Shown: positions 2,090 through 25,524, counted from the first letter of the stretch. The stretch is DNA of 64,000 nt from Candidatus Micrarchaeum sp. (GCA_020723935.1 DYHY01000004.1:7634-71633); one strand, 5' to 3'. Notes: generated from the letters alone by a model not told the origin. Numbers and translations are program-made.

Positions 2090-2344
2090 TCACTCGTAGA
2101 GCTTGTCGAGGCCCTCGACGAAGTTCTTCCAGGATTCGTCGGACTGCGCGTCCGACTTCATCTTCTCGGCGAGGAACTTCACGACGAGATCCGCCTCCTG
2201 GTCGAGCATCTTCCCTGCGAGGGGCTCAAGCTTCTTCTTGATCTTCTCCTTTAGGAGCTCGAACTTGCTGCCTTCGCCGCGGCCAGCACGAAATCCGCGC
2301 GCCAGTCGCCGCCCTCTTCGCCCGAGCAACAGGAGCACCCGCAT
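2090..2344 (-). CDS. small Lys/Glu-rich protein; an upstream Cys/His/acidic repeat (HACGCGDEGECGCGEDDESCCGDEGECGC) lies in a different frame
   Basis: C-terminal 60 aa has protein-like composition. Upstream 24-nt DNA repeats encode CGCGDEGEC units that end at a TAA exactly where this frame begins, suggesting a frameshift. Confidence 0.3.
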   Translation of the reverse strand: MRVLLLLGRRGRRLARGFRAGRGEGSKFELLKEKIKKKLEPLAGKMLDQEADLVVKFLAEKMKSDAQSDESWKNFVEGLDKLYE

Positions 2345-2629
2345 TCGCCCTCGTCGCCGCAGCAGGATTCATCGTCTTCGCCGCAGCCGCATTCGCCCTC
2401 GTCGCCGCAGCCGCACGCATGTCCTTCTTCGTGTCCTTGTTTGTGTATCTCAAAATTACTTCTCCTTTTTTGGTCCGGGGACGGTATCTGGTATATAAAC
2501 TATACTGTGTCTCCCTGGAGGACGCTTTTTCGGCCGTCGGCGGGGGCTCCAGATGGCGCCGTCATCCGGACTTCAGGAGAGGTTCCCTTTGGGTTAGGAT
2601 TAAAACCGGGTTCCGGCGGGCTTCCTCCA

Positions 2630-3361
2630 ATGGAACCGCGGATTGTGGGGGTCGGAAAGGACGCTTCCGCCGAGAGGCTTCTCCTCGCCGGCCTGCGCTC
2701 GATAGGCCATTCCCCGGTGAAGAGGAATCCGGAGATCGTCGTCTCCCTCGGGGGCGACGGATCCCTCCTCAAGGCCGAGCGGCTCTATCCTGGCGTCCCG
2801 AAGCTCCCCGTGCGCGACAGGAGCATCTGCGAGAAGTGTGGGGACGGGAGGCTCGGCGCGCTCCTCAACGCCGCCCTCTCCGGGAAGCTCGCCGTGAAGG
2901 AATATGGGAAGCTGGAGGGGCGGGTGCTTCGGAAGGGAAGGCCGGTCTTTCGCGGGATGGCTGCAAACGACGTCGTCGTGCGAAACGACAAGCCCTACCA
3001 CGCACTCAGGTTCTCCCTGAGGATAAATTCAAGGCCCGTGGACGGGATAATGGTCGGCGACGGGATCGTGGTCTCAACGTCCTTCGGCTCCACGGGGTAC
3101 TTCCACTCCGTAACCGGGAGGCACTTCAAGGAGGGCCTCGTCGGCGTCGCGTTCAACAACCCGATGAGGGGCCGGGCGCCCGTGATCGGGAAGGCCCTTC
3201 GCGTGCGCCTGAAAATCGAGAGGAACCCCGCCGTCGTGTGCCTCGACAACGACAGGCGCATCTTCCTCGCAAGGGAGGGGGACGTCGTCGAGGCGAGGCC
3301 CTCGAAGGGGAAGCTGAGGATCCTGGGCGGCTGGACGTTCGGGAACGGGAAGGAACCCTAG
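2630..3361 (+). CDS. nadK: NAD(+) kinase
   Basis: GGDGSLL, NDVVV and DGIVVSTSFGSTGY motifs. Start taken at the internal Met (MEPRIVGVG) of track ORF 2441..3361. Confidence 0.85.
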   Translation: MEPRIVGVGKDASAERLLLAGLRSIGHSPVKRNPEIVVSLGGDGSLLKAERLYPGVPKLPVRDRSICEKCGDGRLGALLNAALSGKLAVKEYGKLEGRVLRKGRPVFRGMAANDVVVRNDKPYHALRFSLRINSRPVDGIMVGDGIVVSTSFGSTGYFHSVTGRHFKEGLVGVAFNNPMRGRAPVIGKALRVRLKIERNPAVVCLDNDRRIFLAREGDVVEARPSKGKLRILGGWTFGNGKEP

Positions 3362-3363
3362 GC

Positions 3364-3693
3364 TAGTCCGGAAAGGCGTCGCTCGTCCCGAGGCATTCCG
3401 AATACTTCGCGAAATTGTCGGCCATGTATTTGCGCCACTGCGCGTCCGTGTAGCCGGGAAGCTTGGCGCAATAGGCGGCGCCCCCGCCGGTGGCGGATGA
3501 GGGGCGCGCCTGCTGCTTCTGCTGCGGCGCTCCGTAGGCCAGGCTCCTGTAGGAAGCGCGATACCCTCTCCCCCAGGAAAGCGCCTCCGAGGGAACCGAG
3601 CATCAGGAGGAGGAGAACTGCTACTGCGCCCGCCTTCGTGAGCAGGTCCCGTCTCACTTTCTTTCCACCGTGCCTAGCCCAGGCATTCCGCAT
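3364..3693 (-). pseudogene. small secreted protein, frameshifted paralog of 3674..3904
   Basis: Signal-peptide-like N-terminus in one frame; C-terminus (CAKLPGYTDAQWRKYMADNFAKYSECLG) in the +1 frame aligns with the neighbouring gene. The shift falls at a GGGGG run. Confidence 0.4.
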
Positions 3694-3904
3694 ACCGGTC
3701 CGGGTGGTGGCCCATGTGCTGTCTCCACGCAGCGTCGGTGTACCCGGCGGGGGTGGCGCACTTGTCGAGGGGGTTCTGCGCCGCGAAAGTCCGCTGCGCT
3801 TGGGCTGCCGTGTAAAGGGGCTTGGGCGCCAGAATCCCCGAAAGCGTCCAGGCGAGCGTCCCGACCGCGAAAAGGAGCAAGACTACCAGGGCTGTCGCCT
3901 TCAT
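3674..3904 (-). CDS. small secreted protein with signal peptide
   Basis: MKATALVVLLLFAVGTLAW signal peptide, then conserved CATPAGYTDAAWRQHMGHHPDRYAECLG. GGAGG-like motif upstream of the internal Met. Confidence 0.5.
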   Translation of the reverse strand: MKATALVVLLLFAVGTLAWTLSGILAPKPLYTAAQAQRTFAAQNPLDKCATPAGYTDAAWRQHMGHHPDRYAECLG

Positions 3905-3993
3905 CGGGCCGCCGGAACTTCCCCCCCTCCCCTGCCGCCCGCCGTCTCCGTGTTCGCGCTCTTCCTTGCCCCTCCGCTCGTTCTCCATGTTTT

Positions 3994-4602
3994 TCATCCT
4001 CCATACCTCGCCACGTATCCTATAGCGAAAACAACCGAAATGAACGATATCGTCAGGACGACCCGCTTGGCGTACTCCAGGTCGCGCCCGAGAAGGAAGT
4101 CGAGGAAGCCGATGCCAGTCACCCTCACGCCAGCCCTCCGGACGTACGAGAGCATCATGAAGGTCCCTAGAACGTTTGAGAATATCGTAGCGAGGAGAAA
4201 CGCCGGCTGGTAGCGGAAGAAGAAGAAGCTCGTCAGGGTGGAGATTCCAATGAGGGGGACGTCGGTCAGGTGGTGCGCGCAGCGGGCGACCATCGACGCG
4301 CCCGAGACTCCTGCGGAGCCCGCGAGCGGGGACGCACCGACCGCGACGAGGCCTGAAGCGTAGGAATAGATCCAGAACTGGAAGGCGGGGAGGGCCGAGA
4401 TGACGAGGACGAAGGGCAGCATCTGCCTGAACTGGGCGACCGCGAGATCGAACGAGTTGAAGACGAGCATTATCGAGAAGTAGAGCGTGGGCATCGCTAC
4501 CAGGCCTGCCAGGGCCGCCAGGGCCGCCAGGGCCGCGAGGATGCGCCCGGATTTGCCGGCGGCCTCCACCTTTCCCGGGCCCGCTTTCGTCCCCGCTTCC
4601 AT
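3994..4602 (-). CDS. integral membrane protein (about 6 TM) of unknown function
   Basis: 202 aa hydrophobic ORF. Last gene of a three-gene minus-strand set with the TRASH and His-rich proteins. Confidence 0.45.
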   Translation of the reverse strand: MEAGTKAGPGKVEAAGKSGRILAALAALAALAGLVAMPTLYFSIMLVFNSFDLAVAQFRQMLPFVLVISALPAFQFWIYSYASGLVAVGASPLAGSAGVSGASMVARCAHHLTDVPLIGISTLTSFFFFRYQPAFLLATIFSNVLGTFMMLSYVRRAGVRVTGIGFLDFLLGRDLEYAKRVVLTISFISVVFAIGYVARYGG

Positions 4603-4603
4603 C

Positions 4604-4873
4604 TCAGTGCCGATGCCTCCCCGCGCCCTTCTTCTCCTCCTCCTTCTCCTCCTTCAGCCCCCCTTCCTCGCCGCCGTGGTCGTGGCTGTGGCGGCCCTTT
4701 CCCGAGAACATCATCCAGAGGTGGAGCGCGGCCATTCCGCTTATCAGAATCATCGAGGCCGTTCCGCCGGAGATCCTCACGCCCAAGAACGGCAGGGCGA
4801 CAACCGCAAGGAGCGGCGCTACGCAGGCGAAGACCATCCAGAAGCCGCTGTCGCCGTCCTTCAGGAATCCCAT
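4604..4873 (-). CDS. small membrane protein with His-rich C-terminal tail
   Basis: Two TM segments, then HSHDHGGEEGG...HRH. Immediately downstream of the TRASH gene. Confidence 0.45.
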   Translation of the reverse strand: MGFLKDGDSGFWMVFACVAPLLAVVALPFLGVRISGGTASMILISGMAALHLWMMFSGKGRHSHDHGGEEGGLKEEKEEEKKGAGRHRH

Positions 4874-5125
4874 CTAGTGGCAGCAGTCTCCTCCGGAGTG
4901 CCCGCGGGATTCCAGCTCGACCTTGCGCTCGAATTTCTCGAGGCAGTTCTTCGAGCAGAACCATTGGCCGTGGCGCTCCGTGGCGCTCCCTTCCTTCCTC
5001 TTCCTCCCGCATATCGGGTCCTTCTTCGTCTCGAACAGTCCGAACAGTTCCCTTCTACTCAGCTCCTTCTTTCCTTTCTCGCAATCTTGCCGGCCTTGCC
5101 CGCAGCCTCGTCCTCGCCGCAGCAA
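4874..5125 (-). CDS. TRASH/YHS-type metal-binding domain protein
   Basis: DPICGRK...WFCSKNCLEKFE matches the TRASH/YHS Cys pattern, like the CopA N-terminus at 15557. C-terminal GGDCCH. Confidence 0.6.
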   Translation of the reverse strand: MLRRGRGCGQGRQDCEKGKKELSRRELFGLFETKKDPICGRKRKEGSATERHGQWFCSKNCLEKFERKVELESRGHSGGDCCH

Positions 5126-5351
5126 GGTGATTCCGGGAACTTCCTGGCCGCTTCCGCCGCCTCGGGGTTCCTCCTGGCGAGATCCTCGAGCGTCACTTTT
5201 TCCCCGCCTCCCGGAGGAACCAGAAGAGCGCGTAGGCGTCGAGGGCGTCGGAGAAACAGTCCATCGCGGCCTTCCTGTCGCCCGCCCCGCCCCTCTTTAT
5301 CCCGACCTCAAGGAGGCGCATCGTTGTCCTGAGGAGGTGCTTTGAGACGCA

Positions 5352-5620
5352 TCACATCTCGCCGGAGGTGTTGCGCACTACTATCTGCTTCTGGTACTTG
5401 CTGCGAAGCTTCCTCACCGCGGAATAGGTGCCGCGGTAAGTGGGATCCTTGGTCTTGACGGCCGCGAAGGCGGGGTGCTCCTCGATTGACACGAGGTTCA
5501 TCACCGCGACCGATATCTCCTGCAGCGTCCCGAGGTCCGACTTTTGGAAGTCTTCGCGCCTTCTTTCGTTTCCGCAACCGTGTTGCCGTTATTGTTGCCC
5601 TTCTTCGTTCTTTTCGCCAT
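5352..5620 (-). CDS. small basic protein with interrupted reading frame
   Basis: MAKRTKKGNNNGNTVAETKEGAKTSKS in one frame; 60-aa protein-like tail (..MNLVSIEEHPAFAAVKTKDPTYRGTYSAVRKLRSKYQKQIVVRNTSGEM) in another. Weak S25e-like ending. Uncertain. Confidence 0.2.
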
Positions 5621-5626
5621 CTTGGA

Positions 5627-6044
5627 TCACATCAGCGCCATCGGCAGTATGTAGCCGCCGATCGCCAGCATCGCGAGGCCCGCGAGGAGCGAGACCGCCC
5701 GATGGCCCGCCTTCTCCGCGCGCTCGATGTTGTCGACGACTCGCCTGTTCGCGGCGATCGCGAGTATCGCTATGAGCGGCAGGACGAACATCATCGCGTT
5801 GTAGACCATCAGGTACATGAACCCCCGGGCGGGATTGCCTATGAGCAGCGACGTTATGGAGAAGTAGATGCCTGACGTGCAGCTGGAGGAGCAGATCCCC
5901 ACAAGGAGCCAAAGGAGGAAGGCCGCGGGGAGGGATGCCCTGCTCGCGAGCTTGACGAAGCGCCCCTTCTGGTATGAACATGGGCTTGAGCAGGAAGAGG
6001 AACGCGATGTAGGAGATTATCCCGACGGCTATCATGAGCGCCAT
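5627..6044 (-). pseudogene. small membrane protein with apparent +1 frameshift
   Basis: MALMIAVGIISYIAFLFLLKPMFIP (track ORF 5589..6044) continues as KGRFVKLASRAS...GGYILPMALM (track ORF 5627..5902) across a GGGG run. Confidence 0.4.
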
Positions 6045-6153
6045 CTTGGAGGGGGAGGTCTAGCTCCACGGCGGGAAGCCTGGCGGTGCCTGCCTGCCTC
6101 TTTTTTCCGGAATCCCGCTTTGTCACCCTTTTCATCCTCCCTCGCCGCGAGTT

Positions 6154-7332
6154 TTAAGCCTTCTTCAGCGCGGCCCTCAAATCTTCAAGCAGGTCTTCCT
6201 TCGTCTCGATCCCGACGGAGAGCCTGACGAGGCCCGGCTCGACTGCTATCTGCGAGCCCGCGGTCGACGCGTGCGTCATCGCGAGCGGCACCTCGATTAG
6301 GGACTCCACTCCCCCAAGGGACTCTGCGAGCGGGAAGAGCCGTGTGCCCTCCGCGAGCCTCCTGGCGGCCCGTGCCCCGCCCTTCATCACGACGGAGACC
6401 ATCCCGCCGCCGTTCCTCATCTGCCGCTCCGCGAGGGAGTGCTGCGGATGGGACGGGAGCCCGGGGTAGAGGACGCGGGAGACCTTTGGATGGCCTTCGA
6501 GGAGCTCGGCGATTGCGAGCGCGTTCTCGGCATGCCGCTCCATCCTGACCGCGAGCGTCTTCGTCCCGCGCAGGATGAGGAAGCAGTCCATCGGGCCCGG
6601 GACCGCGCCGATGGCGTTCTGCAGGAACTTCAGGCGGGAATACATCTTCTCGTCGTTTAGGAGGAGCGCGCCCCCAACGACGTCCGAGTGGCCACCCAGG
6701 TATTTCGTCGTCGAATGGACGACGATGTCCGCCCCCAAGGAAAGGGGCCGCTGCAGGTAGGGCGTCGCGAAGGTGCTGTCGACTGCGACCTGCGGCCTCG
6801 CCCGGGACTTGCGGGCCAGATCCGATATCTCGCGTACGTCGCAGAGCGCCATGCGGGGGTTGGTCGGCGTCTCGAGCCAGACTAACTTCGTGTTCGGCAG
6901 GATGGCTTGCGCGACCGCTCCGGAATCCGATCCGTCGACATATGTGAAAGAGAGCCCGTACTGGCGCAGGACGCGCTCGAAGAGCCGGTAGGTGCCGCCG
7001 TAGACGTCGTTGCACGCGACCACGTGGCCTTCGGGTCCTACCGTGCGGAGGACCGTGTCTATCGCCGCCATCCCGGAGGAGAACGCGAGGCTGTGGCGCG
7101 CGCCCTCGAGCGCCGCGAGGTTCTTCTGAAGAGCCGTCCGCGTCGGGTTGTCCGTGCGCGAATAGTCGTATCCCTTGTGCTTCCCTATTCTTTCTTGGGC
7201 GTAGGTGGAAGTCAGGTAGACCGGCGTCATCACGGCGCCTGTCGACGGGTCGGGCGGCTGGCCCGCCCTGACTGCGAGAGTCTCGAATCCCTGTTCCTTC
7301 CCTTTCAGAATGCCCTTGTTCACGTAGGTCAT
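6154..7332 (-). CDS. cystathionine gamma-synthase/gamma-lyase family PLP-dependent enzyme
   Basis: 392 aa with the Cys/Met-metabolism PLP fold. PLP-lysine motif VHSTTKYLGGHSDVVGG. Confidence 0.85.
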   Translation of the reverse strand: MTYVNKGILKGKEQGFETLAVRAGQPPDPSTGAVMTPVYLTSTYAQERIGKHKGYDYSRTDNPTRTALQKNLAALEGARHSLAFSSGMAAIDTVLRTVGPEGHVVACNDVYGGTYRLFERVLRQYGLSFTYVDGSDSGAVAQAILPNTKLVWLETPTNPRMALCDVREISDLARKSRARPQVAVDSTFATPYLQRPLSLGADIVVHSTTKYLGGHSDVVGGALLLNDEKMYSRLKFLQNAIGAVPGPMDCFLILRGTKTLAVRMERHAENALAIAELLEGHPKVSRVLYPGLPSHPQHSLAERQMRNGGGMVSVVMKGGARAARRLAEGTRLFPLAESLGGVESLIEVPLAMTHASTAGSQIAVEPGLVRLSVGIETKEDLLEDLRAALKKA

Positions 7333-8402
7333 GTCGTTCCCCTTCCAAGCGTCTTGCTCTTTTTCTTCTTTTTCTTCTTCTTCTTCTTCTTCTCCCGCTC
7401 TTGCTCCGCGCCCCTGTTGCCGCGGAAACGCAGGACATGGGCCGCCAAAACTATCACGAGCAGGAGGAGGGCGCCCCCTAGCACCTTAGGATAGGGCCCG
7501 GAGGAAGAGGAGAGCGCCCTGCCCTGCACCGAATAGAAGTACTGCTTGAGGTGGAGGAAATCCCAGGTGTTGACGACGGAAGTCCCCCTGAATACGACAA
7601 ACGACAGGCCGATGAGCGCGAGGAACGCGCCCGACACCAGGTTCGTCGTGTGCAGCAGCAGGTCCTTCCCGAACAGGCGGACGCGCACCTCTTTTCCCCT
7701 GATAAGCGGGCTCTTCGCGAGGCCTGTGGAATCGTAGAAGACAGACAGGATGAAGAGCGGGGCGAAGATGCCCAGGGAATACGCGCCCATAAGGAGGCTA
7801 GCGTAGAGGACGTTCCCGAGGAGCGCCGCGACGGAGAGAATCCCGCTCAGTATCGGCCCGACGCAGGCGGTCCAGCCCAGGGCGAAAAGGGTGCCGGAGA
7901 CGAAGACCCCCGCGACGCCGTCGCCGCCGGGAGCCGGGGCGGTTCTCGGCCGGATGAAGGAGGAGAATCCCTTGCCGAGGGCGGTCATGATTCCCATCGC
8001 CATCAGGACGAGCCCCGCCACGAGGACGAGCTCCGGCCTCTGGAGCTTCAGGAGCGATTGCTCGCCGACGAATCCGGCGACCGCGCCGAACGCCATGAAA
8101 ACCACCGCGACCCCTAGCGAGAACGCGAGGGTCATCTTCGTCACTTCCGTTTTGCCTCCCGGCCGGAAGGTGTAAGAGAAGTACGCGGGAAGGAGCGGGA
8201 GGACGCAGGGAGAGAGGAGTGTGAGGGCGCCGGCAAAGAACGCGATGAGGAAGGAGATCTTCGCCTGGAAGTCCCTGGCATAGCCCTGGTTATAGTCCTT
8301 TATCTTCTGGAGGGCCGGCGGGAGAGCCGATGCGTCCGCCGCGAGGGCGGGCGCCAGGAGGACGAGCGCCAGCAGCGCCCGGCCCAGATCCATCCTATCC
8401 AT
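7329..8402 (-). CDS. ccdA: cytochrome c-type biogenesis protein CcdA (DsbD-family) with 100-aa C-terminal extension ending in poly-Lys
   Basis: LSPCVLPLLPAYF and a second conserved Cys in the TM core. Extra TM helices. EKKKKKKKKKKK tail encoded by a (TTC)n run. Confidence 0.75.
   Translation of the reverse strand: MDRMDLGRALLALVLLAPALAADASALPPALQKIKDYNQGYARDFQAKISFLIAFFAGALTLLSPCVLPLLPAYFSYTFRPGGKTEVTKMTLAFSLGVAVVFMAFGAVAGFVGEQSLLKLQRPELVLVAGLVLMAMGIMTALGKGFSSFIRPRTAPAPGGDGVAGVFVSGTLFALGWTACVGPILSGILSVAALLGNVLYASLLMGAYSLGIFAPLFILSVFYDSTGLAKSPLIRGKEVRVRLFGKDLLLHTTNLVSGAFLALIGLSFVVFRGTSVVNTWDFLHLKQYFYSVQGRALSSSSGPYPKVLGGALLLLVIVLAAHVLRFRGNRGAEQEREKKKKKKKKKKKSKTLGRGTT
7358..7393. repeat. (TTC)n microsatellite encoding the poly-Lys tail of CcdA
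   Basis: ctttttcttctttttcttcttcttcttcttcttc on the plus strand. Confidence 0.8.
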
Positions 8403-8406
8403 CCTA

Positions 8407-8991
8407 TCAGTTCACCGCCAAGGTTCCCCTCATCAAGCTGTGCCCGGAGCCGCAGGGGCGGTTGCAGAAGAATGCGAAACGCCCCTGCCTGTCCGCGGTG
8501 AACTCGACGACGACCGGCGCGTCCCCGGGGGAGAAGGACTGCGTCGCAACCCCATAGTCGGGAAGGGTGGGGCCGTGCGTCCCCGACGTGCTTGTTAGAA
8601 CGAGCCTAACGCGGTCTCCCTGGCTCACGGTTGTGGTCGACGAGTTCCAGCCGAAGGAGTATGCCTCGACCTTTATCTCCTTCATGGGCGCCTGGCCCGC
8701 CGTCGAGGAGGTGGGCGAGCTGGAGGATGAAGAGGAGGGGGATGAAGAGGAGAGGGATGAAGAGGAAGGGGATGAAGAGGAGGGGGATGAAGAGCCCTGC
8801 GAGCTTGATGTCGAACTGGATGGACTTCCTGAGCCAGCCGAAGGCATCCCCGCGTCCTGCGCTGGCCCCGTCACGCATCCCGCGACCAGGACCGCCGCCG
8901 CCAGCAGAACGGCCGCCACAACCGCAAAGGAGGCGGCCGTCTCGGGCATAGCCTTCCCGATGTTTCCCCTGAATCCCGATGCGTATCCCAT
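8407..8991 (-). CDS. cupredoxin-like (CuA-type Cys/His/Met motif) lipoprotein with Ser-rich linker
   Basis: Lipobox LVAGC after a hydrophobic signal. About 45 aa of SSSP-type linker. C-terminal FFCNRPCGSGHSLMRG resembles the CuA CxxxCGxxHxxM motif. Confidence 0.6.
   Translation of the reverse strand: MGYASGFRGNIGKAMPETAASFAVVAAVLLAAAVLVAGCVTGPAQDAGMPSAGSGSPSSSTSSSQGSSSPSSSSPSSSSLSSSSPSSSSSSSPTSSTAGQAPMKEIKVEAYSFGWNSSTTTVSQGDRVRLVLTSTSGTHGPTLPDYGVATQSFSPGDAPVVVEFTADRQGRFAFFCNRPCGSGHSLMRGTLAVN
8690..8810. repeat. 12-nt tandem coding repeats (ggatgaagagga-like) encoding the Ser-rich linker
   Basis: Five near-identical units. Antisense reading gives the EDEEEGDEEE artefact ORF 8567..9220. Confidence 0.7.
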
Positions 8992-9014
8992 TTCCGTCCT
9001 TTCATCCTCCCGTT

Positions 9015-10000
9015 CTTATCTCTTTCCCGCCGTCCCGTTCGGAACCACGACCGAGCCGTCGGACAGGTTCCTATACGGCAGGCTGAATATCTCGACCGTC
9101 TGGAAGACGTACGTCCCGTCCCGCTCGACCGTCCCAACGTACTTCCAAGAGCCGTTCAGCGCCGGATACGCATCCACGTCGCCGTTCAGGATCGCCGTAG
9201 GGACGAGGAGTATCCCGTAGCGCGAGAGAAGCTCCTTCCCCCTCAGCCGAGAATATGTCGACGGATTTCTCGGCTTGCACGGCCGCCCCGACCTTGGCCA
9301 AGACCTTCTTGTGTATGGGCCCGGGATCGTAGCAGGACGCGCACGAGGCGTCGCGGACTATCGTGAGGTTGACGTACCCGACGGCCCGCCCGAGGGAAGC
9401 GTCGTAGTAAGGCGGAAGGGGTTTCTCGGCCACGTAGGCGGAACCGTCGGCTGAGAGGGGGGCCGTGCTGAAGATTCCGGGAAGGATGCCCTCGTACGCC
9501 GAAAGCTCCCCTGAGAGGACGACAGCGGGGAATTTCGAGAGGGAATACTCGAGCGCGAGCGAGCGTCCTTTGGGGGAAGACAGGTTCACCTGGCTGATGC
9601 TTCCCAAGCCCACCCCAGCTAGGCGCAGCTGGCTTAGGAACGGAAGGGAGCCCGCGCAGGACAGGGCATAGATTACGGAAACGTTCACTATTCCTGCGAC
9701 CGACCCGCTAGAGACGTCGAAGTAGAAGGGGTCTGGAGAGGAAAACACGATTGCGTCGCCAGAAAGCCTTCCGCCGGGAACCGCTTGCAGGGATTTCGCC
9801 TTCCCTATCTCGCCCGTCACGATCACCGCCGGAAGACGCGTTATCCCGTACCTGGAGATTAGGGGAGCAACCAGGGAGGAGCCGAAATCCAGGTCGTCTT
9901 GCGATGCCACCCGCACTCCGGCGGACTTGCGTATGGAATCTGCCAGGGCCGCGGGCGATGAGCACCTGCCGCAGTCGGCCTTGACTACTATGGTAGTCAT
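9015..10000 (-). CDS. protein with three tandem thioredoxin/glutaredoxin-like repeats (CGRC, degenerate SCAGS, CASC); C-terminal repeat in shifted frame
   Basis: MTTIVVKADCGRC...RYGITRLPAVIVTGE; YSLSKFPAVVLSGE; then SRYGILLVPTAILNGD only after a shift at a GGGGG run near 9240. Track ORF 9071..10000 ends in Arg-rich junk. Confidence 0.5.
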
Positions 10001-10269
10001 GGAGACGTCCGCCGGGAGGGGCGCTCCTGCTCGGTTCGGACGGCCGAGCCCAGGATTCTGGAGAGCGAGGAGGACGAGAGGAGGTCAACGGACGCGAACA
10101 TGACGAGGGCCGCCGCGAGGGCGAGTACGAGGCCTTCCCTCCTAAAAACCCCGGGAGGCTCCGGCCCGCGCGATTCCGCTGCCTGCCTACTGCTCCGCCT
10201 CGTCTCCATCGCCATCTCGCAAGTATTGTGCCCCGGGGGGCGCGCTCTCTTGATTCCTGAATAGAACAA
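9997..10269 (-). CDS. small single-TM protein, translationally coupled to the thioredoxin-fold gene
   Basis: Its stop overlaps the downstream ATG (ATGA). One hydrophobic helix LVLALAAALVMFASV. Confidence 0.3.
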   Translation of the reverse strand: MFYSGIKRARPPGHNTCEMAMETRRSSRQAAESRGPEPPGVFRREGLVLALAAALVMFASVDLLSSSSLSRILGSAVRTEQERPSRRTSP

Positions 10270-10319
10270 AGGAAGGGTCTTTTTTTGGGAAACGGAAATA
10301 ATCCCTCTGACGCCCTAAA

Positions 10320-10556
10320 CTAACAGCCACCCACCTGCTGGGGAAGACTCGCAAGGCTCTTGGGAACCGAGCCTCCCGACGCCGCGGCGATGCCTCCGCT
10401 GTTGCTGCCTGCGGCCTCGGACGCTGCGAAGAGCTCCCCGAGGGAAACCTTCCCGTCCGAGACCTTCGTCCTAAGCTCGTTCAGCTGGAACGTCTGCGCC
10501 GCGGAGACTACCACGAACACCGCGAGAATCGCCGCGAGTATCTTCGTCTGGTCCAT
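10320..10556 (-). CDS. small membrane-anchored protein ending in the SLPQQVGGC motif
   Basis: N-terminal TM ILAAILAVFVVVSAAQTF. C-terminus ...SLASLPQQVGGC followed by a stop. Confidence 0.45.
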   Translation of the reverse strand: MDQTKILAAILAVFVVVSAAQTFQLNELRTKVSDGKVSLGELFAASEAAGSNSGGIAAASGGSVPKSLASLPQQVGGC

Positions 10557-10603
10557 CTTTTTTCGACACCTCCTTGTCTTTCTTCTTTCCTGATCTGATT
10601 AGC

Positions 10604-11416: not shown

Positions 11417-11466
11417 TTTCGGTCCGGTCGAGAACGCTGCCCCTATATTTAAAAGGGGGGAAATAA

Positions 11467-11486
11467 CCGTGAAAAAACAGTGAAAG
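11467..11486 (+). promoter_or_regulatory. 20-bp motif CCGTGAAAAAACAGTGAAAG (direct GTGAAA half-sites) overlapping the regulator start codon; TATATTTAAAA box upstream
   Basis: Reverse-complement copy at 13252..13272. AT-rich box at about 11441-11452 in a divergent intergenic region. Confidence 0.45.
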
Positions 11487-13228: not shown

Positions 13229-13251
13229 CATTCTCGGCGGTTTGCCGGCGG

Positions 13252-14582: not shown

Positions 14583-14584
14583 AA

Positions 14585-15526: not shown

Positions 15527-15556
15527 TCAGTTAAAAAGAGGTAAAGGGGGAGAAGA

Positions 15557-18196: not shown

Positions 18197-18216
18197 TAAG
18201 GGCCGCCCGCATCGGG

Positions 18217-18849
18217 CTAGCCCCGTTTTTTCTTCTTCTTGGCGGGAGATCTGCTCTGCTTCCCCTTCCGCCCGATGAACCTCGTCGAATACGCGACGGT
18301 CGCCGCGAGGGAGACTGCGATAGGTATCACGACGATCGGCATCGCGAAGGCGGGCGGGATGATCGCCGCTATCGGCGGGAAAAGCGCTGAGAAATAGAGC
18401 CCAAGGGCGCCGGCCTTCTGCGTCCCCGCCCACGCGTCCTCGTTTCCCTTTATCCAGGGGAAGCGGAAGCCGAGGGCCGGGTTTTCCGGCGCGGATTGGA
18501 CGCACCAGCCCAGGTATGCGAGGGCTGCCGAGAAGAGGAGGAGGAAAGCCAGGGGCGTCCTCTCGTTCCCCGCGAGGATCGCAATCACCTGGTCGTTGGC
18601 TATTATCACGAGGAGGAGGAACATCAGCTCCAAGTTCCTTAGCGAGGAGACAACCCCTTCGGGAAGGAGCTCCTTCCTTTTCCTGCCCTTGAGCCGGAAG
18701 AGGAGGAACACCGCGATCGCCGCGGCCGGGGCGGCGAAGAGCAGGGGGCTTGCGAGGCCGGCTGCGAAGCGGAGGCGGAAATAGATGGAGGATGCGAGCG
18801 GGAAGAGCGCGAGGAAGGCGGAGAGGAGAAGGTACGCGAAGGCGGCCAT
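18217..18849 (-). CDS. SdpI/YhfL-family membrane protein
   Basis: GFRFPWIKGNEDAWAGTQK matches the family motif. Multiple TM helices. Lys-rich C-terminus. Confidence 0.45.
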   Translation of the reverse strand: MAAFAYLLLSAFLALFPLASSIYFRLRFAAGLASPLLFAAPAAAIAVFLLFRLKGRKRKELLPEGVVSSLRNLELMFLLLVIIANDQVIAILAGNERTPLAFLLLFSAALAYLGWCVQSAPENPALGFRFPWIKGNEDAWAGTQKAGALGLYFSALFPPIAAIIPPAFAMPIVVIPIAVSLAATVAYSTRFIGRKGKQSRSPAKKKKKRG

Positions 18850-19161
18850 CTATTCCCCCCTTGCGCCCTTCTTCGTCTTCTTCTTCGCCGCCTTGGGGAA
18901 GAACCCCGGAAGCGCCGCGTACGCGAGGACCGAGAAGGCTATCACGGCGAGGGCGGCGAATGCGGGCGTTGAGACGGGCGCCTCGGAGAGGAGGAGCTCA
19001 AGGCCCCCGGTGGGGACCCTTGGCGGGCCGGGCTTCTCGCTTTGCGTCAGGAGGAATATGAAGATGAAGGCGAACGCCGCTATCAGGAGGACGAATATCA
19101 GGAGGAACAGCTGCTTTGTCTTGGACATTCTCCTGTCTCGCCTCCACCCCAAGCGCGTCAC
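18850..19161 (-). CDS. small two-TM membrane protein
   Basis: Hydrophobic segments LFLLIFVLLIAAFAFIFIFLL and FAALAVIAFSVLAYAAL. Abuts the SdpI-like gene. Confidence 0.35.
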   Translation of the reverse strand: MTRLGWRRDRRMSKTKQLFLLIFVLLIAAFAFIFIFLLTQSEKPGPPRVPTGGLELLLSEAPVSTPAFAALAVIAFSVLAYAALPGFFPKAAKKKTKKGARGE

Positions 19162-19436
19162 CCCTGCTTATATCCCTTTTCGGCAGACGGCCTTCTCGCG
19201 GCGACCGCGGCCTTCACCGGGCAGGGGCAGCACCGGTAGCAGGGGTCGCAGTAGGGGCCGGGAGCGCTCTTCCCGGGGTCGAGGATCGCTCCGCCCGCCT
19301 CCCTCGCGTTCAGGTCCGCCTTTATAGAAAGGCAGTACGTTCCCGCGTCCGTCGGGCAGGTGCAAATCCTGGGGACCAAATAGAGTATCGGCGCGCGCGC
19401 CGCCCGCCCGTGCCCTTCCCTCCCGAAGGGACGCAC
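19158..19436 (-). CDS. Cys-rich small protein (CTCPTDAGTYC ... PYCDPCYRCCPCP)
   Basis: Coding-like codon usage. 4-nt overlap with the downstream gene. Family unknown. Confidence 0.3.
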   Translation of the reverse strand: MRPFGREGHGRAARAPILYLVPRICTCPTDAGTYCLSIKADLNAREAGGAILDPGKSAPGPYCDPCYRCCPCPVKAAVAARRPSAEKGYKQG

Positions 19437-19494
19437 AGTTCCCCCTTCCCGGGGCCCTGTGGCCTTAAAACGTTTCCAGCCCTCGCGCGTATCT

Positions 19495-20199
19495 TCAGGC
19501 CGGGCCGCCGTAGGAGGAGACTATCTTTGCAATCCGCCTCGCCGTCTCGGTCTGCGTGATGTCGGTCACGTCCAGGATGTGGACGTCCGGGAGCGCGATT
19601 GTCCTGCCGTCGCCACAATCCAGGCTCCTTGCCTGCGCGGCGAGGCGGAAGTACTTGTCCGTGAGCTCAAGCCTGCGCGTGTCGCTCTCATTCCACCTCT
19701 CGGCCGTCCCGGCGTCGCGCTTCCCGTCCTTCACGCGCTCCACAATGCGCTTGCGGTTCTCCTCGACGGTGGACACGAGTATTATCTCGGCACGCGGGAG
19801 TATTATCCCGCCCGACTCGACGGCCGAATACATGCTGTCCAGCGTCGGGCGCACCTTCTCGTCGGCCCATCCGTACTCCTCCTGCATCACGCGCAGGTAC
19901 ACCCAGACATCAAGGTACCCGCTCCTGTCCGAAAAGACGGTGGAATTCGGTGGGGCGGCGGCTAGCATGGCGGACCTCTCCCTGTGCTGGCGTATCAGCT
20001 CCTCCTCCCCTTTCAGGCTCCCTAGGAAGGGGTTGAGGGGCTCCTCGAGATAGAGCGCCCAGGGGACGAGCCTTACGAGTTCCGCCAGGGTCTCGGTTTT
20101 GCCCACGCCGTGGGAGCCGTTCACCGAAAAATAAAGTCCGTGCGTTTTCTGCGGCGACACCCTCCGGCCGGAACTTGCCCAATAAAAAGGAGATGGCAA
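19495..20199 (-). CDS. P-loop kinase, deoxynucleoside kinase-like
   Basis: Walker A GSHGVGKTE; LEEP and FSDRSGY resemble the dNK EP and ERS motifs. Track ORF extends to 20370 across the tRNA and repeats; true start is likely TTG/GTG near 20160-20199. Confidence 0.5.
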   Translation of the reverse strand: MPSPFYWASSGRRVSPQKTHGLYFSVNGSHGVGKTETLAELVRLVPWALYLEEPLNPFLGSLKGEEELIRQHRERSAMLAAAPPNSTVFSDRSGYLDVWVYLRVMQEEYGWADEKVRPTLDSMYSAVESGGIILPRAEIILVSTVEENRKRIVERVKDGKRDAGTAERWNESDTRRLELTDKYFRLAAQARSLDCGDGRTIALPDVHILDVTDITQTETARRIAKIVSSYGGPA

Positions 20200-20215
20200 C
20201 GGCGGGCGCGCTATC

Positions 20216-20323
20216 GGCCGGGCCGCGGCGGGGTCTGGAGGGCGCCGAACGAAGAGAGGGGCCCGGAACGGCCGGGCCGCGGCGGGGTCTGGAGGGCGCC
20301 GAACGAAGAGAGGGGCCCGGAAC
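20216..20323. repeat. perfect tandem duplication (2 x 54 bp) that includes the 3' terminal 10 nt of tRNA-His
   Basis: ggccgggccgcggcggggtctggagggcgccgaacgaagagaggggcccggaac at 20216-20269 and again at 20270-20323. Confidence 0.9.
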
Positions 20324-20385
20324 GGGAATCGAACCCGTGTTTGGGGATCCACAGTCCCCCAGTCTGCCACTAACTTATCCAGGCC
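20314..20385 (-). tRNA. tRNA-His (anticodon GUG) with extra 5' G-1
   Basis: Hand-folded cloverleaf. Acceptor GCCUGGA/UCCGGGC with one G-U. Anticodon stem GGGGA/UCCCC, loop CUGUGGA. T-arm ACGGG-UUCGAUU-CCCGU. Discriminator C73 pairs with G-1. TTTATAAAAG box about 30 nt upstream. No encoded CCA. Confidence 0.85.
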
Positions 20386-20873
20386 ACGATCGACTGCGAA
20401 GACTCCTGGAAGGCGCTTTATAAAAGTTAGATGCCCCGCGCTTCCTGCCGCGGCGCGCCATTTCGCCGGGCTTGGCTAGCTCCACTGCGCACAGCATCCA
20501 GAAGGCCGCCGCGCAGATGAGGAGGGCCTCCGCGAGCAGTATCAGCCAGTCGGACCCGATCCCGCGCGCGAAGGCGCGCGTCGCGGCCGCCGTCCATAGG
20601 AGGATGACGAAGAAGACGACGCCGGAATAGCCCGGCCGAAGATCCCCCCGCTGCCCCTGAGCGCCCGGACGCCCGCGACGATGGAATATGCCATGAGGCC
20701 GCCGCCGCGAGCCCGAGGAAAAGTATCGAAACAGTCAGGATGCCGCCCGTCCCCCTGCAAGCCGGCAGCGCTCAGTTTAAGGGTTCTGCCGGAAGACCCG
20801 GAACGTTATAAATGCCGGGCGGGGCCCCGCCCCCGTGCTAGGGACCAATATCGCCCTCGCGGCCGAAGCGGTG

Positions 20874-21881
20874 ATGTCCAACTTCAGGAGGCCCGCCTTT
20901 CCATACAAGCTCACATTCGCCGTCACCTACAACTGCAACTCGCGCTGCAAGACGTGCAACATCTGGCAGAACAGGAGCACGGGCGAGCTGACGCTCGGGG
21001 AGATAGACTCGTTCCTCAGGAAGAACGGTGGCTTCCGCTGGGTCGCCATAACGGGCGGGGAGCCGTTCCTGCGCCGCGACCTCCCCGAGATCTGTGAATC
21101 GTTCGCGAAGAACTGCCCGCTCCAGATACTCACAATAACGACCAATTCCCTCCTCCCGACGCTCCAGATAGAGGGGATAAGGAAGATAGCGAAGCTCAAA
21201 ATCCCCAGGCTCATCGTCACGCTGAGCTGCGACGGGGCGGGCAAGCTGCACGACGAGATACGCGGCGTGCCTGGGAACTTCGAGAAGCTCTGCCGGATAT
21301 ACTCGGAGCTGCGCGGCCTGCAGGACAGCCACTTCCGGATTTTCTTCGGGATGACGCTCTCGTCCTTCAACGTCGGGAAATTCGATGAGCTCTACAGGGA
21401 GCTGCATTCGCGCTTCCCGGAGATCGGGTACGACAGGATCCACGTGAACGTCTTCCACACCTCGAGCCACTTCTACAGTAACGCTGAGGGCGGCGCCGAG
21501 GAGAAGAGGGAGAAATGGAAGAGGGCGGCGATAGCGGAGATGAGGAACGTCCTCTTGAAGAGGAGGTTCTCCCCCTTCGATTCCCTCGGGTTCCTCGAGC
21601 GTAGGTACATCAAGGGCTCGATAAGATATATGAAGACGGGCAGGTCGCCGATGTCCTGCCTCTCGCTCTCGAGCTCGATGTTCCTCGACCCGCACGGGAA
21701 CCTCTATCCCTGCACAATATGGAACAGGAAGATGGCGAGCATCCGCGAGAACAAGGATTTGAGGAAGCTGTGGAACTCGCGCGAGTTTCGGGAGACCGCG
21801 CGCCTCGCCCGCGAGCTCAAATGCCCCAACTGCTGGACCCCTTGCGAGGCGTATCAGACGATACTCGGGAATCTTCTCTAA
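20874..21881 (+). CDS. radical SAM enzyme with C-terminal SPASM/Twitch-like Cys cluster
   Basis: CNSRCKTC (CxxxCxxC) near the N-terminus. C-terminal C-x17-C ... CPNCWTPC. Start taken at MSNFRR within track ORF 20835..21881. Confidence 0.8.
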   Translation: MSNFRRPAFPYKLTFAVTYNCNSRCKTCNIWQNRSTGELTLGEIDSFLRKNGGFRWVAITGGEPFLRRDLPEICESFAKNCPLQILTITTNSLLPTLQIEGIRKIAKLKIPRLIVTLSCDGAGKLHDEIRGVPGNFEKLCRIYSELRGLQDSHFRIFFGMTLSSFNVGKFDELYRELHSRFPEIGYDRIHVNVFHTSSHFYSNAEGGAEEKREKWKRAAIAEMRNVLLKRRFSPFDSLGFLERRYIKGSIRYMKTGRSPMSCLSLSSSMFLDPHGNLYPCTIWNRKMASIRENKDLRKLWNSREFRETARLARELKCPNCWTPCEAYQTILGNLL

Positions 21882-21935
21882 AAAGGGCCCAAGGGACGTT
21901 TCTGCGTAATGTCATGAGTAACAGTTAAAAACTCC

Positions 21936-23222
21936 TTGCCAGTTATACCGCACCGGGGGAATACCAGAATGTCAACTAGTGATAGCAGAAAGTCTCTCCC
22001 GTGCATTTTGACCTCTAGTCCGAAGGCGCCTAAGGGGGGAAGCGGTATCAAGCTTCCGGGCGTTCCCAAGGGCCCGGTGCCCTACGTCGTTGGCGTGGGG
22101 GCCTTCCTGACGATGGTGCTCGCCGGATACCAGAGTTTGGCATACAGCCCGCCGGATTCCCCGGACTTCGAAGTCGACAGGCTAGTTGACCCCTACGCCA
22201 GGGACCTCGCTAAGACCAAGACGCAGGGCACGATAGCTGAACTTATCTACTACCGGCTCGCGGCGCTCCCGACCTACCTGACCGTGAAGGGCGCGATAGA
22301 TGAGTGCAAGACCAGTCCCCCCCCAGCCGAGGAGACCGCCTTCCTACACAATGCGGCGTGTGTTGATGCGGCCCTCGCGAGCTACCAAGCAGGCCTTAAT
22401 CAGGTCATCGCCGACATGGGGAACCCGGCATCCGTCGTCTACACACCCGTCGGGAGCGCGATGGGAGGGGTTGAGGGCAGGCTCTCCCTCCTAGACAGGC
22501 AGATCGCCGCGGCGAGGGCAGGGATCGCAGAGACCGGGGAAGCGTACAGGAACGGCGTGGACACCCTCGGCCGCCTCACCGCCGAGCGGGCCGGGATACA
22601 GCGCGAGCAGGACGAGAGGAGCGACGAGCTCACGCAGGCCACCTACGACAGGATGCAGGTGGAACAGCAACTCGCTGCCCTCACGGCCTACAACGTGGGG
22701 GAGGACGTGCCGCTCTCCGGCGTGAGGCGCTGGGCCGAGGACTTGTGGGAGCTGCCAACCGCGATCGGCCTCAAGGGCCAGCTCTCCGAGAAAGCGGCAG
22801 CCGAAGCGCAGGCGCAGGCGACCTTGGATTCCACGAACATCAGGGCGAAGGCGACGGACCTGGAGATCAAGGCGACAGAGAGCGTCCTCTCCAACGGGGA
22901 GAATATTGTCAAGGCCGCGTACGTTGATCCGACGCTGACCCTCCTGGGCGACTTCATGGGATATTCCGGCGCGAACGACGCAAGGGACGCGCAGGTCGTA
23001 AGCGTCCCGGAGGAACTAGATAACATCCGGCAGCTCTCCCGCGACTCGATACTGCAGGATTCGCAGGCGTTCGTGGAGGCTGCCCTCGCCGACGCAAGGG
23101 ACGATGCGGCAAGGAACAAGCCGAACCCCTTGGCCGGCCCCATAGCGACGGCGATCGGAGGCACTATCCTGACCCTGACGATTGCCGGAGCCACGCTCCT
23201 GGGTAGGAAGAGCAGGGGCTGA
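21936..23222 (+). CDS. membrane-anchored coiled-coil protein (N- and C-terminal TM helices)
   Basis: TM near residues 48-65 and 400-420. Long Ala/Glu/Gln-rich helical middle. No family recognised. Confidence 0.45.
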   Translation: MPVIPHRGNTRMSTSDSRKSLPCILTSSPKAPKGGSGIKLPGVPKGPVPYVVGVGAFLTMVLAGYQSLAYSPPDSPDFEVDRLVDPYARDLAKTKTQGTIAELIYYRLAALPTYLTVKGAIDECKTSPPPAEETAFLHNAACVDAALASYQAGLNQVIADMGNPASVVYTPVGSAMGGVEGRLSLLDRQIAAARAGIAETGEAYRNGVDTLGRLTAERAGIQREQDERSDELTQATYDRMQVEQQLAALTAYNVGEDVPLSGVRRWAEDLWELPTAIGLKGQLSEKAAAEAQAQATLDSTNIRAKATDLEIKATESVLSNGENIVKAAYVDPTLTLLGDFMGYSGANDARDAQVVSVPEELDNIRQLSRDSILQDSQAFVEAALADARDDAARNKPNPLAGPIATAIGGTILTLTIAGATLLGRKSRG

Positions 23223-23262
23223 ACAGAGAAGTAGGAAGGCAGCAGCTCCCTAGCAAGAGGGC

Positions 23263-23532
23263 TCAGTCCTCGTACTGGCTCCGGGATATCTCCCAGCCTA
23301 TTGCGGCGCTAGCAAGGAGCGCGGCGACGGTGAGGACGGTGACCGGCACCGCCAGCGCGAGCATCCGGTAGGCGGGAGTCAGGATCCCGAAGAGGAACAG
23401 AGCGAGCAGCGCGACGGAAGCGAAGGTGAGCATTATCCCGCTGAGGTTCCCGGCCTGCGGGCCCTGCGGCCCCTTCTTCCCCCCTTTTTCCGGGGCAGCC
23501 CCTTTGTAATCCTTCCTGCTCGAGCGAGGCAT
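23263..23532 (-). CDS. small two-TM membrane protein
   Basis: 89 aa, Lys/Gly-rich N-terminus then two hydrophobic helices. Confidence 0.35.
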   Translation of the reverse strand: MPRSSRKDYKGAAPEKGGKKGPQGPQAGNLSGIMLTFASVALLALFLFGILTPAYRMLALAVPVTVLTVAALLASAAIGWEISRSQYED

Positions 23533-23915
23533 ATTCGGAAGCCTGGATGGAGAGGCGGTTTAAAATCGTTTTCGGAGAGGGCTGCTGTGCGGGGCTCCGG
23601 AACGGCGGGGGTGGGGGGCAGGAAACCTTCCTTCTGGGATTTTCCCTTCCCGGGCAGCTAGGGCCGGGCGGCCCTGCAATGCCTCGTGGGAAACGGGAGT
23701 GCAGTTCTCTTGTCGCCCTCTCGCATCCCCTTTTCCGGAGCCCTCAATCATTCGGCTTGCGCGCCTGGCGGTTATGCTTCCGATATCCTCACATGCGCGG
23801 GGCTTCCCCGCAATCCTCCTTGCCCGTCCTCCCGCGCGCCCTGCGGATAACGATTGGGGGAGGGCTTTTCCGCTAATGCTTTTATCTCGGGAATGCTCTC
23901 CCGGGAAGGAACATA

Positions 23916-24320
23916 ATGGCGCTCTCCGACACCAAGAAGAAGGCCGCGCGCGAGATGGTCCTCGCGGCCCTGGGGAACAAGGGGAGGGATGGCGCCAGGT
24001 TCTCCGAGCTCTTCTTGATTGCGCGGCGCTCCATCGACCCCTCCGAGCTCAAGCTCCTCCTCTTCGAGATGCAGCTGGCAGGCGAGGTCGAGGAGATTGT
24101 CCCGACGCTCTTTCGCCTTGCCGACAGGAAGCCGCCGCCAAAGGAGAAGGAGCCCGAGAAGCCGACCTTCAAGTGCAGGATCTGCGGCCTCACCTACGCC
24201 GACGAGAAGTGGTGGAAGAAGTGCGAGTTGTGGTGCGCGACGCACCCGGCATGCAACCTGCAGATAGGGCAGCACTCGCTCGAGGGCCGCGGCGAGAAGG
24301 AGTCGGACCTGGAGCATTAG
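23916..24320 (+). CDS. small winged-helix plus C4 zinc-ribbon protein (regulator-like)
   Basis: N-terminal helical part; CRICGLTYADEKWWKKCELWCATHPAC. Followed by a terminator hairpin. Confidence 0.5.
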   Translation: MALSDTKKKAAREMVLAALGNKGRDGARFSELFLIARRSIDPSELKLLLFEMQLAGEVEEIVPTLFRLADRKPPPKEKEPEKPTFKCRICGLTYADEKWWKKCELWCATHPACNLQIGQHSLEGRGEKESDLEH

Positions 24321-24332
24321 CAGGCACCCGAG

Positions 24333-24360
24333 GCCGTCCCGAGGGACGGGCGCTTTTCTT
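24333..24360 (+). terminator. hairpin plus T-tract downstream of 23916..24320
   Basis: gccgtccc-ga-gggacgggc followed by gcttttctt. Confidence 0.4.
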
Positions 24361-24460
24361 CCGAAGAGGATGGAGGGCCCGTTCTTTTCGCAAAAGAAGG
24401 GGGGTTCTGGTGCAGGAGGCCGGGCTCCGAAGAGTCCGGTTTTGTTGCACCATCTGAGGA

Positions 24461-24547
24461 TGGTGCAGGAGGCCGGATTCGAACCGACGAACCCTCTAGG
24501 GGAGCAGATCTTGAGTCTGCCGCGTTTGACCGCTCCGCCACTCCTGC
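24461..24547 (-). tRNA. tRNA-Leu (anticodon CAA), long variable arm, CCA encoded
   Basis: Acceptor GCAGGAG/CUCCUGC. Anticodon stem GCAGA/UCUGC, loop CUCAAGA. Variable arm about 17 nt. T-arm CGGUUCGAAUCCG. Ends ACCA. TTTAAAA box about 25 nt upstream. Confidence 0.85.
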
Positions 24548-24639
24548 GAAGGAGAGGCCGGCGCGACTCATTTAAAACCCTTGCATGGCTTTCCGAAAAG
24601 AGGGGAGAGCGAGACCAGGGCAGACCTGTCCGCGAGAAA

Positions 24640-25524
24640 GACGAAGGCGCTTGTCGCGATTTCCGAAGAGCTCTCGCGCGCGCCGGCGTCGAGAAGTGGT
24701 GCCTCATAGGGAGTTGCGCCCTCTTCGCGCGCGGCGTGACGCAGAAGGAGCCAAACGATATCGACATCCTGACCGACCTCCCGGGGGCAAGGACTGCCGG
24801 GCGCGCCCTCGCCGGGATGGTCGTGTCTTCCAAGGAAACTCCAAAAGAAGGCGCCCAGCCGCTCATGCTTTCCGTCGTCCTGTTGATCGGGGGCTGCGAG
24901 GTCGAGATCATCGGCGAGGAGCCTGCGCCGGACCTGTCGCATCTGGAATGGATCGCTGCGGGAGGGGGCCGGTCGTCCCGCTCCGGCCGGCAGAGGAGGA
25001 GCTGGCCCTCTATGAGCGGCTCGGGAGGGGGGAGCGCGTCGGGGAGATTAGAGTGTGGCTCGCCCGCGCGAGGGTGTGGGCCCTGAAGCTGGTCTGCGCG
25101 AGGCTTGGGGGGTTGGGAATAAGGTGGGCGCTCGTGGGAAGCAGCGGCCTCGCGCTGCGGGGCGTGGACGTTGAGCCGCACGACATCGACATCCTCACGG
25201 ACGAGGGTGGGGCATACGGAATTGACCGGCTGCTCTCCGAATTTTCTCCGTCCGCAAGGTCTCGTTCTCCGAGACCACCCGGTTCAGGTCGCACTTCAGG
25301 GAGCTGAGGATGGACGGCGTCAAGGTCGAGATTATAGGGGATCTCCGGACGCGGGAGCCTGGCGGAAAGTGGTCCGAAATCGGGGACCTCTCCAAGGGCA
25401 TGCAGGAGGGCGCTCCTCGCGGACAAGACGAGGGTTCCCGTGAGGCCCTTTGAGTCCTACCTGCGGATGAGGCGAAAGGAAACGACGGAAGCTATAACGT
25501 GCAGGCTCTCTAGGAGCTCCGGTT
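24640..25524 (+). pseudogene. two tandem minimal nucleotidyltransferase (MNT / Pol-beta superfamily) domains broken by several frameshifts
   Basis: GSCALFARGVTQKEPNDIDILTD and ALVGSSGLALRGVDVEPHDIDILTDEGG (GS...DxD) lie in different frames. Downstream VKVEIIGDL and LLADKTRVPVRPFESYLRMRRKE segments are in two further frames. Confidence 0.45.

Follow-up and report, generated by a model that had tools for sequence, protein, structure and literature searches.

Clustered single-base frame breaks in small genes of a Candidatus Micrarchaeum sp. contig and their probable origin as frameshift pseudogenes

We analyzed a stretch of 64,000 nucleotides from Candidatus Micrarchaeum sp. (GCA_020723935.1 DYHY01000004.1:7634-71633), here called the window, in which several small genes give a sensible product only if the reading frame is shifted by one base. 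The preliminary description of this sequence had claimed that at least eight accessory genes were broken at ten sites, each at a GGGG or GGGGG run. Our analysis partly confirmed this claim: broken genes do exist, and six of them, with nine to ten breaks, can be supported, all within 3.4-25.5 kb. Comparison with homologues reveals the breaks, a second assembly agrees wherever it overlaps them, and they are clustered both regionally and within genes. We consider it likely, with a probability of about 0.8, that the six genes are genuine frameshift pseudogenes. The genes are as follows.

3363-3693, minus strand: small membrane-anchored two-cysteine protein, tandem paralogue of the intact 3674-3997 gene; break at or near 3570-3574.
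5627-6044, minus strand: remnant of a DsbD_TM/SfLAP-like membrane protein, C-terminal 110-140 aa; break at 5963-5966.
9016-10132, minus strand: thioredoxin-like (protein-disulfide-isomerase-like, CxxC) membrane-anchored gene in three frames; breaks at 10018-10021 and 9238-9242.
20377-20760, minus strand: small predicted membrane protein; probable break at 20644-20649.
24581-25073, plus strand: TM1012-like nucleotidyltransferase copy 1, the more degenerate copy; breaks at ~24682 and 24964-24968.
25074-25526, plus strand: TM1012-like nucleotidyltransferase copy 2; breaks at 25242-25249 and ~25403-25412.

In the analysis, a codon-usage model was trained on 31 long open reading frames (ORFs) of the window, and a Viterbi path with seven states, six for the frames and one for non-coding sequence, was traced over all 64 kb. 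Each frame change on the same strand was checked for explanation by a stop codon and a start codon, and the candidate sites were then tested with homologues, paralogues or relatives in the PDB. The frame switches left unexplained were at ~3570, ~5972, ~9246, ~10022, ~20632, ~24955 and ~25239, all within 3.4-25.5 kb, and the frame map gave extra candidate switches near 24680 and 25410. From 26 to 64 kb, the frame map contained a single doubtful case, the tail of the ORF at 37197-38073.

The tandem nucleotidyltransferase genes were examined against Thermotoga TM1012. In copy 1, one base is missing in a (GC)n stretch at ~24682, where frame scores alone favor a shift near 24680, and one base is missing from the G5 run at 24964-24968. 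In copy 2, one base is missing or two are extra at T4/TCTC (25242-25249), and one base is extra at ~25403-25412, where the run is only G3. The repaired copy 2 aligned with TM1012 (PDB 4hx0, 2ewr and 2fcl) over residues 4-145 (142 residues) in one stretch across both breaks (E=1e-28), and Pfam PF10706 crossed the first of these breaks, at 25242 (E=3e-13). The repaired copy 1 aligned with 4hx0 over residues 34-161 in a single alignment across 24964; it is far more divergent than copy 2 (E=4e-5 versus 1e-28, with a 10-residue gap), and its central frame lacks a start codon after the tRNA-Leu gene. At 25056-25094, the C-terminal frame of copy 1 continues, uninterrupted by any stop codon, into the N terminus of copy 2, whose GTG is at 25074; repair of the pair would yield an in-frame fusion.

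The thioredoxin-like gene has one base extra in the C5 run at 9238-9242 and one base missing from a G4 run (plus strand) at 10018-10021. When one C was taken out at 9238-9242, the repaired protein matched 18 homologues of 370-408 aa, covering 92-98%. Eight aligned homologues are continuous over the 9238 junction, where SAEG is followed by KELLSRYGILLVPT and the residues G, Y, I and P do not vary. All these homologues have an N-terminal transmembrane helix; in the window copy the helix, which is the membrane anchor, lies in the third frame, and the addition of one base at 10018-10021 joins it to the rest of the protein. The closest relatives of the protein are in DPANN-type archaea. A distant relative (L090) has an intact single ORF of 391 aa followed by cupredoxin genes, which is the local order of the window, and a tblastx comparison of the window with the L090 locus gave noise only.

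The DsbD-like remnant has one base extra in a C4 run (plus strand) at 5963-5966. The fragment at 5627-6016 matched about 290 DsbD_TM/SfLAP-like homologues, whose full length is mostly 380-420 aa, through their C-terminal part only, and it is short of ~265 N-terminal residues. The homology opens at residue 12-17 of the open frame, and the first possible start codon of that frame is at residue 39. The upstream 5' frame is ATG-led and hydrophobic, with a log-odds coding score of +17.4, and it added no homology score in the homology test; the evidence for the break at 5963 is thus the absence of a start codon together with codon statistics. Among 146 homologues, a G, a P and a G that are conserved at 95%, 89% and 95% are replaced in the window copy (G45W, P54S and G57S), and the remnant departs from its family at 3 of the 20 positions whose conservation is 80% or higher. 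An intact DsbD_TM gene is found nearby at 7329-8402 (minus strand); its product ends in a C-terminal run of 11 lysines (EKKKKKKKKKKKSK). The gene at 8407-8991 (minus strand) encodes a long Ser/Pro-rich linker, which the frame model briefly misread as a frame change.

The two remaining genes are short. In the two-cysteine protein, one base is extra in the C5 run at 3570-3574. The module C..PGYTDA.WR..M......Y.ECLG of the ORF at 3363-3602 is identical to the paralogue at 3674-3997 at 15 of 28 positions (54%; BLASTP, E=8e-10). This module precedes the first start codon (3425) of its own frame, and the other frame encodes the transmembrane anchor. In the small predicted membrane protein, one base appears to be missing from the C6 run (plus strand) at 20644-20649, and a frame break there is probable: a transmembrane segment that looks coding (20441-20632) lacks an in-frame start before 20497. 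No homologues of the gene at 20377-20760 were found with NCBIfam, Pfam or homologue searches.

In all, seven breaks (3570, 5963, 9238, 10018, 24964, 25242 and ~25405) are backed by homologues, a relative of solved structure or a paralogue. Continuous homologues cross six of them, and 3570 is bridged by the paralogue. Every clear lesion is an insertion or deletion (indel) of 1 nt, and the shifts go in both directions (four +1 and five -1). Several sites of the preliminary description were thus borne out with small corrections of position: 3560 lies at or near 3570-3574 by the paralogue, 5960 is the break at 5963-5966, where homology precedes the first start codon of the frame, 9240 is the break at 9238-9242 that 18 homologues support, and 24960 is the break at 24964-24968 spanned by the TM1012 alignment. 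Near 25225 the break is real, as judged by TM1012 and PF10706, but its true position is 25242-25249 and its context T4/TCTC; near 25410 the TM1012 alignment crosses a break at ~25403-25412, but the run is merely G3; and the break near 20640 is probable only, with a coding-like segment that lacks a start codon but no homologues. Two breaks, at 10018-10021 and ~24682, had been overlooked, and 3 of the 10 sites (2275, 5200 and 5540) found no support. Most breaks are at short runs of 3-6 bases, but the description as GGGG or GGGGG runs is too narrow: T runs, a G3 and a GC repeat account for some breaks, and others have no run.

A comparison with a second assembly had been proposed as a check on the run lengths. 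The organism was seen in a single run of the Logan assemblies (SRR13164374), as contigs of 1-3.4 kb, and five of these contigs cover 765-2575, 9494-10627, 16625-20056, 20296-21956 and 22814-25935 of the window. Over 11,160 bases, the Logan contigs and the window differ by 3 substitutions and 0 indels (99.94-100% identity per contig; 100% for L008 over 765-2575, L007 over 9494-10627 and L009 over 20296-21956), and all 42 runs of at least 5 bases are identical. The breaks at 10018, 20644, ~24682, 24964, 25242 and ~25405, and also site 2275, are inside these contigs with the same run lengths, although the two assemblies may share reads. The contig L006 matches over both nucleotidyltransferase copies with 0 indels, and the same broken ORFs of 240 aa and 47 aa are called there. 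A literature search for SRR13164374 and neighboring run numbers returned nothing relevant.

We further compared the distribution of the breaks with that of homopolymers. The window has 731 G/C runs of at least 4 bases, or one per ~88 bases, so that a GGGG near a given point is weak evidence alone. G/C runs are about as dense in 1-26 kb (11.7 per kb) as in 26-64 kb (11.2 per kb); if breaks tracked runs, the probability that all nine would fall in 1-26 kb is about 4e-4 to 3e-3. All 13 runs of at least 7 bases are in uninterrupted ORFs or between genes, including a G7 in the copper ATPase gene, two G7 in the DUF835 gene, a C8 in 21936-23222 and a C7 in SecY. Runs of the G7/C8 class occur, for example, at 11618, 12010, 17824 and 22317. 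Three genes have two breaks each, and for the two ~480-nt genes the chance of this is about 2e-4.

The sites at 2275, 5200 and 5540 were considered separately. They belong to the following loci.

2090-2460, minus strand: 84-aa ORF with a Cys/His/Gly/acid-rich repeat upstream in another frame (site 2275); break not established.
4874-5588, minus strand: small ORFs upstream of a YHS/TRASH-domain ORF at 4874-5125 (sites 5200 and 5540); breaks not established.

The odds are slightly better than even that there is no frame break at these three sites, and that they are ordinary boundaries of short adjacent or overlapping ORFs, or non-coding DNA with a protein-like translation. No bridging homologue was found for any of the three, the frame scores at 5200 and 5540 are weak, and the YHS domain is the only domain that NCBIfam and Pfam recognized in these orphan fragments. 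A concatenated query of four repaired orphan genes returned zero matches, even to the window's own fragments; this result carries no weight, as low-complexity or X words probably saturated that search. At 5540 there is only a T4 run, and the ORF at 5352-5504 has its own GTG/ATG start (5504/5501). At 5200 the ORF at 5193-5351 terminates at a normal stop codon beside T5/C4, and the downstream ORFs start at GTG (5196) and TTG (5125). At 2275 there is no homopolymer of at least 4 bases within 45 nt, ATG, GTG and TTG are all absent from the Cys-rich frame, and the coding score is positive in none of the frames. On the other hand, one frame at 5046-5195 scores ~25 log-odds units above the other two, and it would continue the ORF at 5193-5351 if A5 were A6; a shift at the A5 run at 5197-5201 is possible but unproven. 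The Cys/His/Gly/Asp/Glu-rich reading at 2251-2460 (minus strand; HKQGHEEGHACGCGDEGECGCGEDDESCCGDEGECGCSCC), which arises from a 24-nt repeat (2335-2427), looks like a metal-binding domain ahead of the helical 84-aa ORF in the other frame, and the neighborhood of all three sites is demonstrably decaying.

For the six supported genes, the preliminary description had left two explanations, sequencing error enriched by chance in the accessory region and pseudogenization. Truncated gene calls are known to arise from indel noise in metagenome assemblies (PMC13087279). If bases had been miscounted at homopolymers during sequencing or consensus calling, the genes would be intact in the organism, and several observations could be read that way: most breaks are at or beside runs of 4-6 identical bases, all lesions are 1-nt indels, the validated pseudogenes show no clear nonsense mutation, no invariant residue of the thioredoxin-like gene is lost, and the Logan contigs possibly come from the same reads as the NCBI contig. 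We nevertheless regard such error as unlikely. Six breaks and site 2275 are within the sequence over which Logan has zero indels, and contigs of 1-3.4 kb at 99.94-100% identity would hardly be obtained by a k-mer assembler from noisy reads. Miscalls rise with run length, but no run of 7-8 bases is broken, and 38 kb of equal homopolymer density is without a break. Thus the breaks neither increase with run length nor follow run density, and run lengths do not differ between the assemblies. The breaks also cluster two per small gene, and two of them are at a GC repeat (~24682) and a G3 (~25405). Finally, the truncation and lost motif residues of the DsbD-like remnant do not come from indel miscalls. 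Pseudogenization is well supported by the agreement with Logan, the clustering by region and gene, and the decay of the DsbD-like remnant.

It is very improbable that the breaks are functional, whether as phase variation, as translational or transcriptional frameshifting, or as split genes with separate working pieces. Several broken genes encode membrane or secreted proteins, which are the usual targets of phase variation, codon usage remains strongly coding-like to either side of most breaks, and both programmed -1 frameshifting (Sulfolobus fucA1) and split genes (Nanoarchaeum) occur in Archaea. However, the tracts of 3-6 bases are well under the ~8 or more of hypervariable tracts and do not differ in length between the two assemblies, no in-register X XXY YYZ heptamer was seen by eye at three -1 sites (20644, 24964 and 25242) in a scan that was not systematic, both shift directions are present, homologues are never split at these points, the downstream pieces are without start codons, and a 150-aa gene with two breaks would need each of them bypassed. 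The long tract of varying length that marks a phase-variable locus was not found, and neither was a slippery motif of programmed frameshifting, at the three sites viewed by eye, nor a shift conserved among homologues. There is accordingly very little chance that these short tracts of G/C or T serve as on/off switches of low frequency or are bypassed during expression; in that case, the archaeon would vary or recode a set of envelope thiol-redox, metal-handling and nucleotidyltransferase genes rather than lose them.

Some points weigh against frameshift pseudogenes. Two breaks, at 20644 and ~24682, have a weak basis, namely coding statistics alone. No clear in-frame stop was found inside any homology-defined pseudogene; older pseudogenes usually carry some in-frame stops. 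The thioredoxin-like gene retains every invariant residue, so its breaks are very recent or, less likely, not real. Six of the seven well-placed breaks are within 6 nt of a run of at least 4 bases (21% expected; P about 4e-4), an association that is somewhat inflated because a break was set at the nearest run where the alignment left a few codons' freedom; the homopolymer link fits replication slippage and sequencing error equally well. No Logan contig was found over 3570, 5963 or 9238 by exact-protein look-ups in 2.6-9.5 kb, and Logan may be a second assembler applied to the NCBI contig's own reads rather than independent data. A close relative for direct orthologue comparison also appears to be missing from the collections searched. 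Ribosomal protein L2 has relatives at 68-77% identity among metagenome proteins and no better match, an RtcB query against GTDB species genomes gave at most 58% identity in many phyla and no close genome, a DUF835 protein query against the same genomes gave no relative, and an exact 42-mer from 4708-4749 had no match in JGI metagenome contigs.

We infer from the sequence that the frameshift pseudogenes would have arisen by slippage under relaxed selection, with loss of function. In this scheme, polymerase slippage at short homopolymers during replication would produce the indels, and six small dispensable genes would each have taken one or two single-base changes. If a gene is not needed, the indels would not be purged and more could accumulate in the same gene, while essential or still-useful genes with an equal homopolymer load would be kept intact by selection. 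Signs of relaxed selection are the two breaks in each of three genes and the truncation and motif loss of the DsbD-like remnant; the residues of the thioredoxin-like gene give no such sign.

The G+C content of the window is 63% throughout, and its annotated proteins trace to one NCBI contig of 74,428 bp. The 29-53 kb region holds archaeal housekeeping genes, including ribosomal proteins L2, L3 and L4, SecY, Cbf5, CysRS and RtcB, and 1-26 kb holds chiefly membrane, metal and thiol-redox genes. The first 26 kb contains a copper P-type ATPase gene (YHS and HMA domains), two cupredoxin-like genes, DsbD_TM and DUF835 genes, a radical-SAM/SPASM gene and a Cys/Met pyridoxal phosphate enzyme gene. Copper handling and envelope thiol-disulfide chemistry form a theme at 2-19 kb, with the CopA-type ATPase, the two cupredoxin-like genes, DsbD_TM, the thioredoxin-like CxxC protein and the YHS/TRASH ORF as members. 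The earlier statement that housekeeping genes are intact holds for 26-64 kb, apart from the doubtful tail of the ORF at 37197-38073, but the 879-aa ORF cited for it is the copper ATPase, which is not a housekeeping gene. The division into accessory and housekeeping genes is itself loose, as intact non-essential genes are numerous to either side of the boundary.

Other features of the window were also recorded. The ORF at 37197-38073 (plus strand) is of unknown function; its last ~290 bases are non-coding-like in all three frames, and it overlaps the convergent gene at 37999-38473 by 75 nt. The tail may reflect a frame break near the C terminus or the loss of a stop codon. At 44808-45102 (minus strand), flanked by the SUI1 and RNase P Rpp29-like genes, a small ORF for a predicted membrane protein contains two coding-like stretches that share a frame and are divided by one in-frame stop (45027-45029), which could be a nonsense mutation or the boundary of two very short genes. 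A perfect 54-nt tandem duplication is present at 20215-20322 (20215-20268 and 20269-20322). Its second copy overlaps the final 11 nt of the tRNA-His gene (20312-20384, minus strand), so that the 3' end of the tRNA is repeated just downstream, and the Logan contigs are interrupted around it, with L001 ending at 20056 and L009 beginning at 20296. The duplication could be a mobile-element scar or a simple duplication. We considered the 20.3-25.5 kb region between tRNA-His and tRNA-Leu as an integrated mobile element and dropped this candidate, since no integrase or matching attachment repeats were seen.

For annotation, these loci are best marked as pseudogenes, neither "corrected" nor counted as assembly errors, and metrics that score truncated proteins as indel errors would wrongly penalize the contig. 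The copper and envelope thiol-disulfide neighborhood seems to be shedding redundant paralogues while retaining one working copy of each. It would be a small, ordinary case of gene loss in an archaeal lineage without a close sequenced relative.

The origin of both nucleotidyltransferase genes is identified by the alignments of the repaired copies with TM1012 (4hx0, 2ewr and 2fcl; PF10706). Unlike TM1012, each window copy needs two frame corrections, and copy 1 has the 10-residue gap and runs into copy 2. Similarly, the DsbD-like fragment fits the C-terminal half of the DsbD/CcdA-type domain (Pfam PF02683, related to PF11139), including the motif RASLPAAF...C..PCTGG.Y; however, it lacks the N-terminal two thirds of the ~400-aa proteins and an in-frame start, and the C.FPCTGG of the family is CSSSCTSG in the window.

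The homopolymer errors of 454, Ion Torrent and Nanopore sequencing, which IDEEL-type checks look for (PMC13087279), resemble the window in giving proteins shorter than their homologues and breaks at mononucleotide runs. The window differs in that a second assembly agrees, 38 kb is clean, the longest runs are spared, few genes are hit, and some breaks are off runs. Phase-variable contingency loci of bacterial pathogens have poly-G/C tracts (~8 or more) in surface genes. As in those loci, G/C tracts are found within genes of the window, several of which have membrane or secreted products, and a change of 1 nt is enough to shift the frame. In contrast, the tracts here are 3-6 bases, they show no variation between assemblies, and cytoplasmic nucleotidyltransferase genes are hit twice each.

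The decaying genomes of Mycobacterium leprae and Rickettsia contain slippage frameshift pseudogenes at short homopolymers. The window differs from them in scale, with a local cluster of about six genes in 64 kb, no clear nonsense mutations, and a loss of function that is predicted from the sequence. It is like them in having 1-base indels at short runs, several per gene, in dispensable or redundant genes only, with essential neighbors intact, and one gene of the window is also truncated with motif residues lost.

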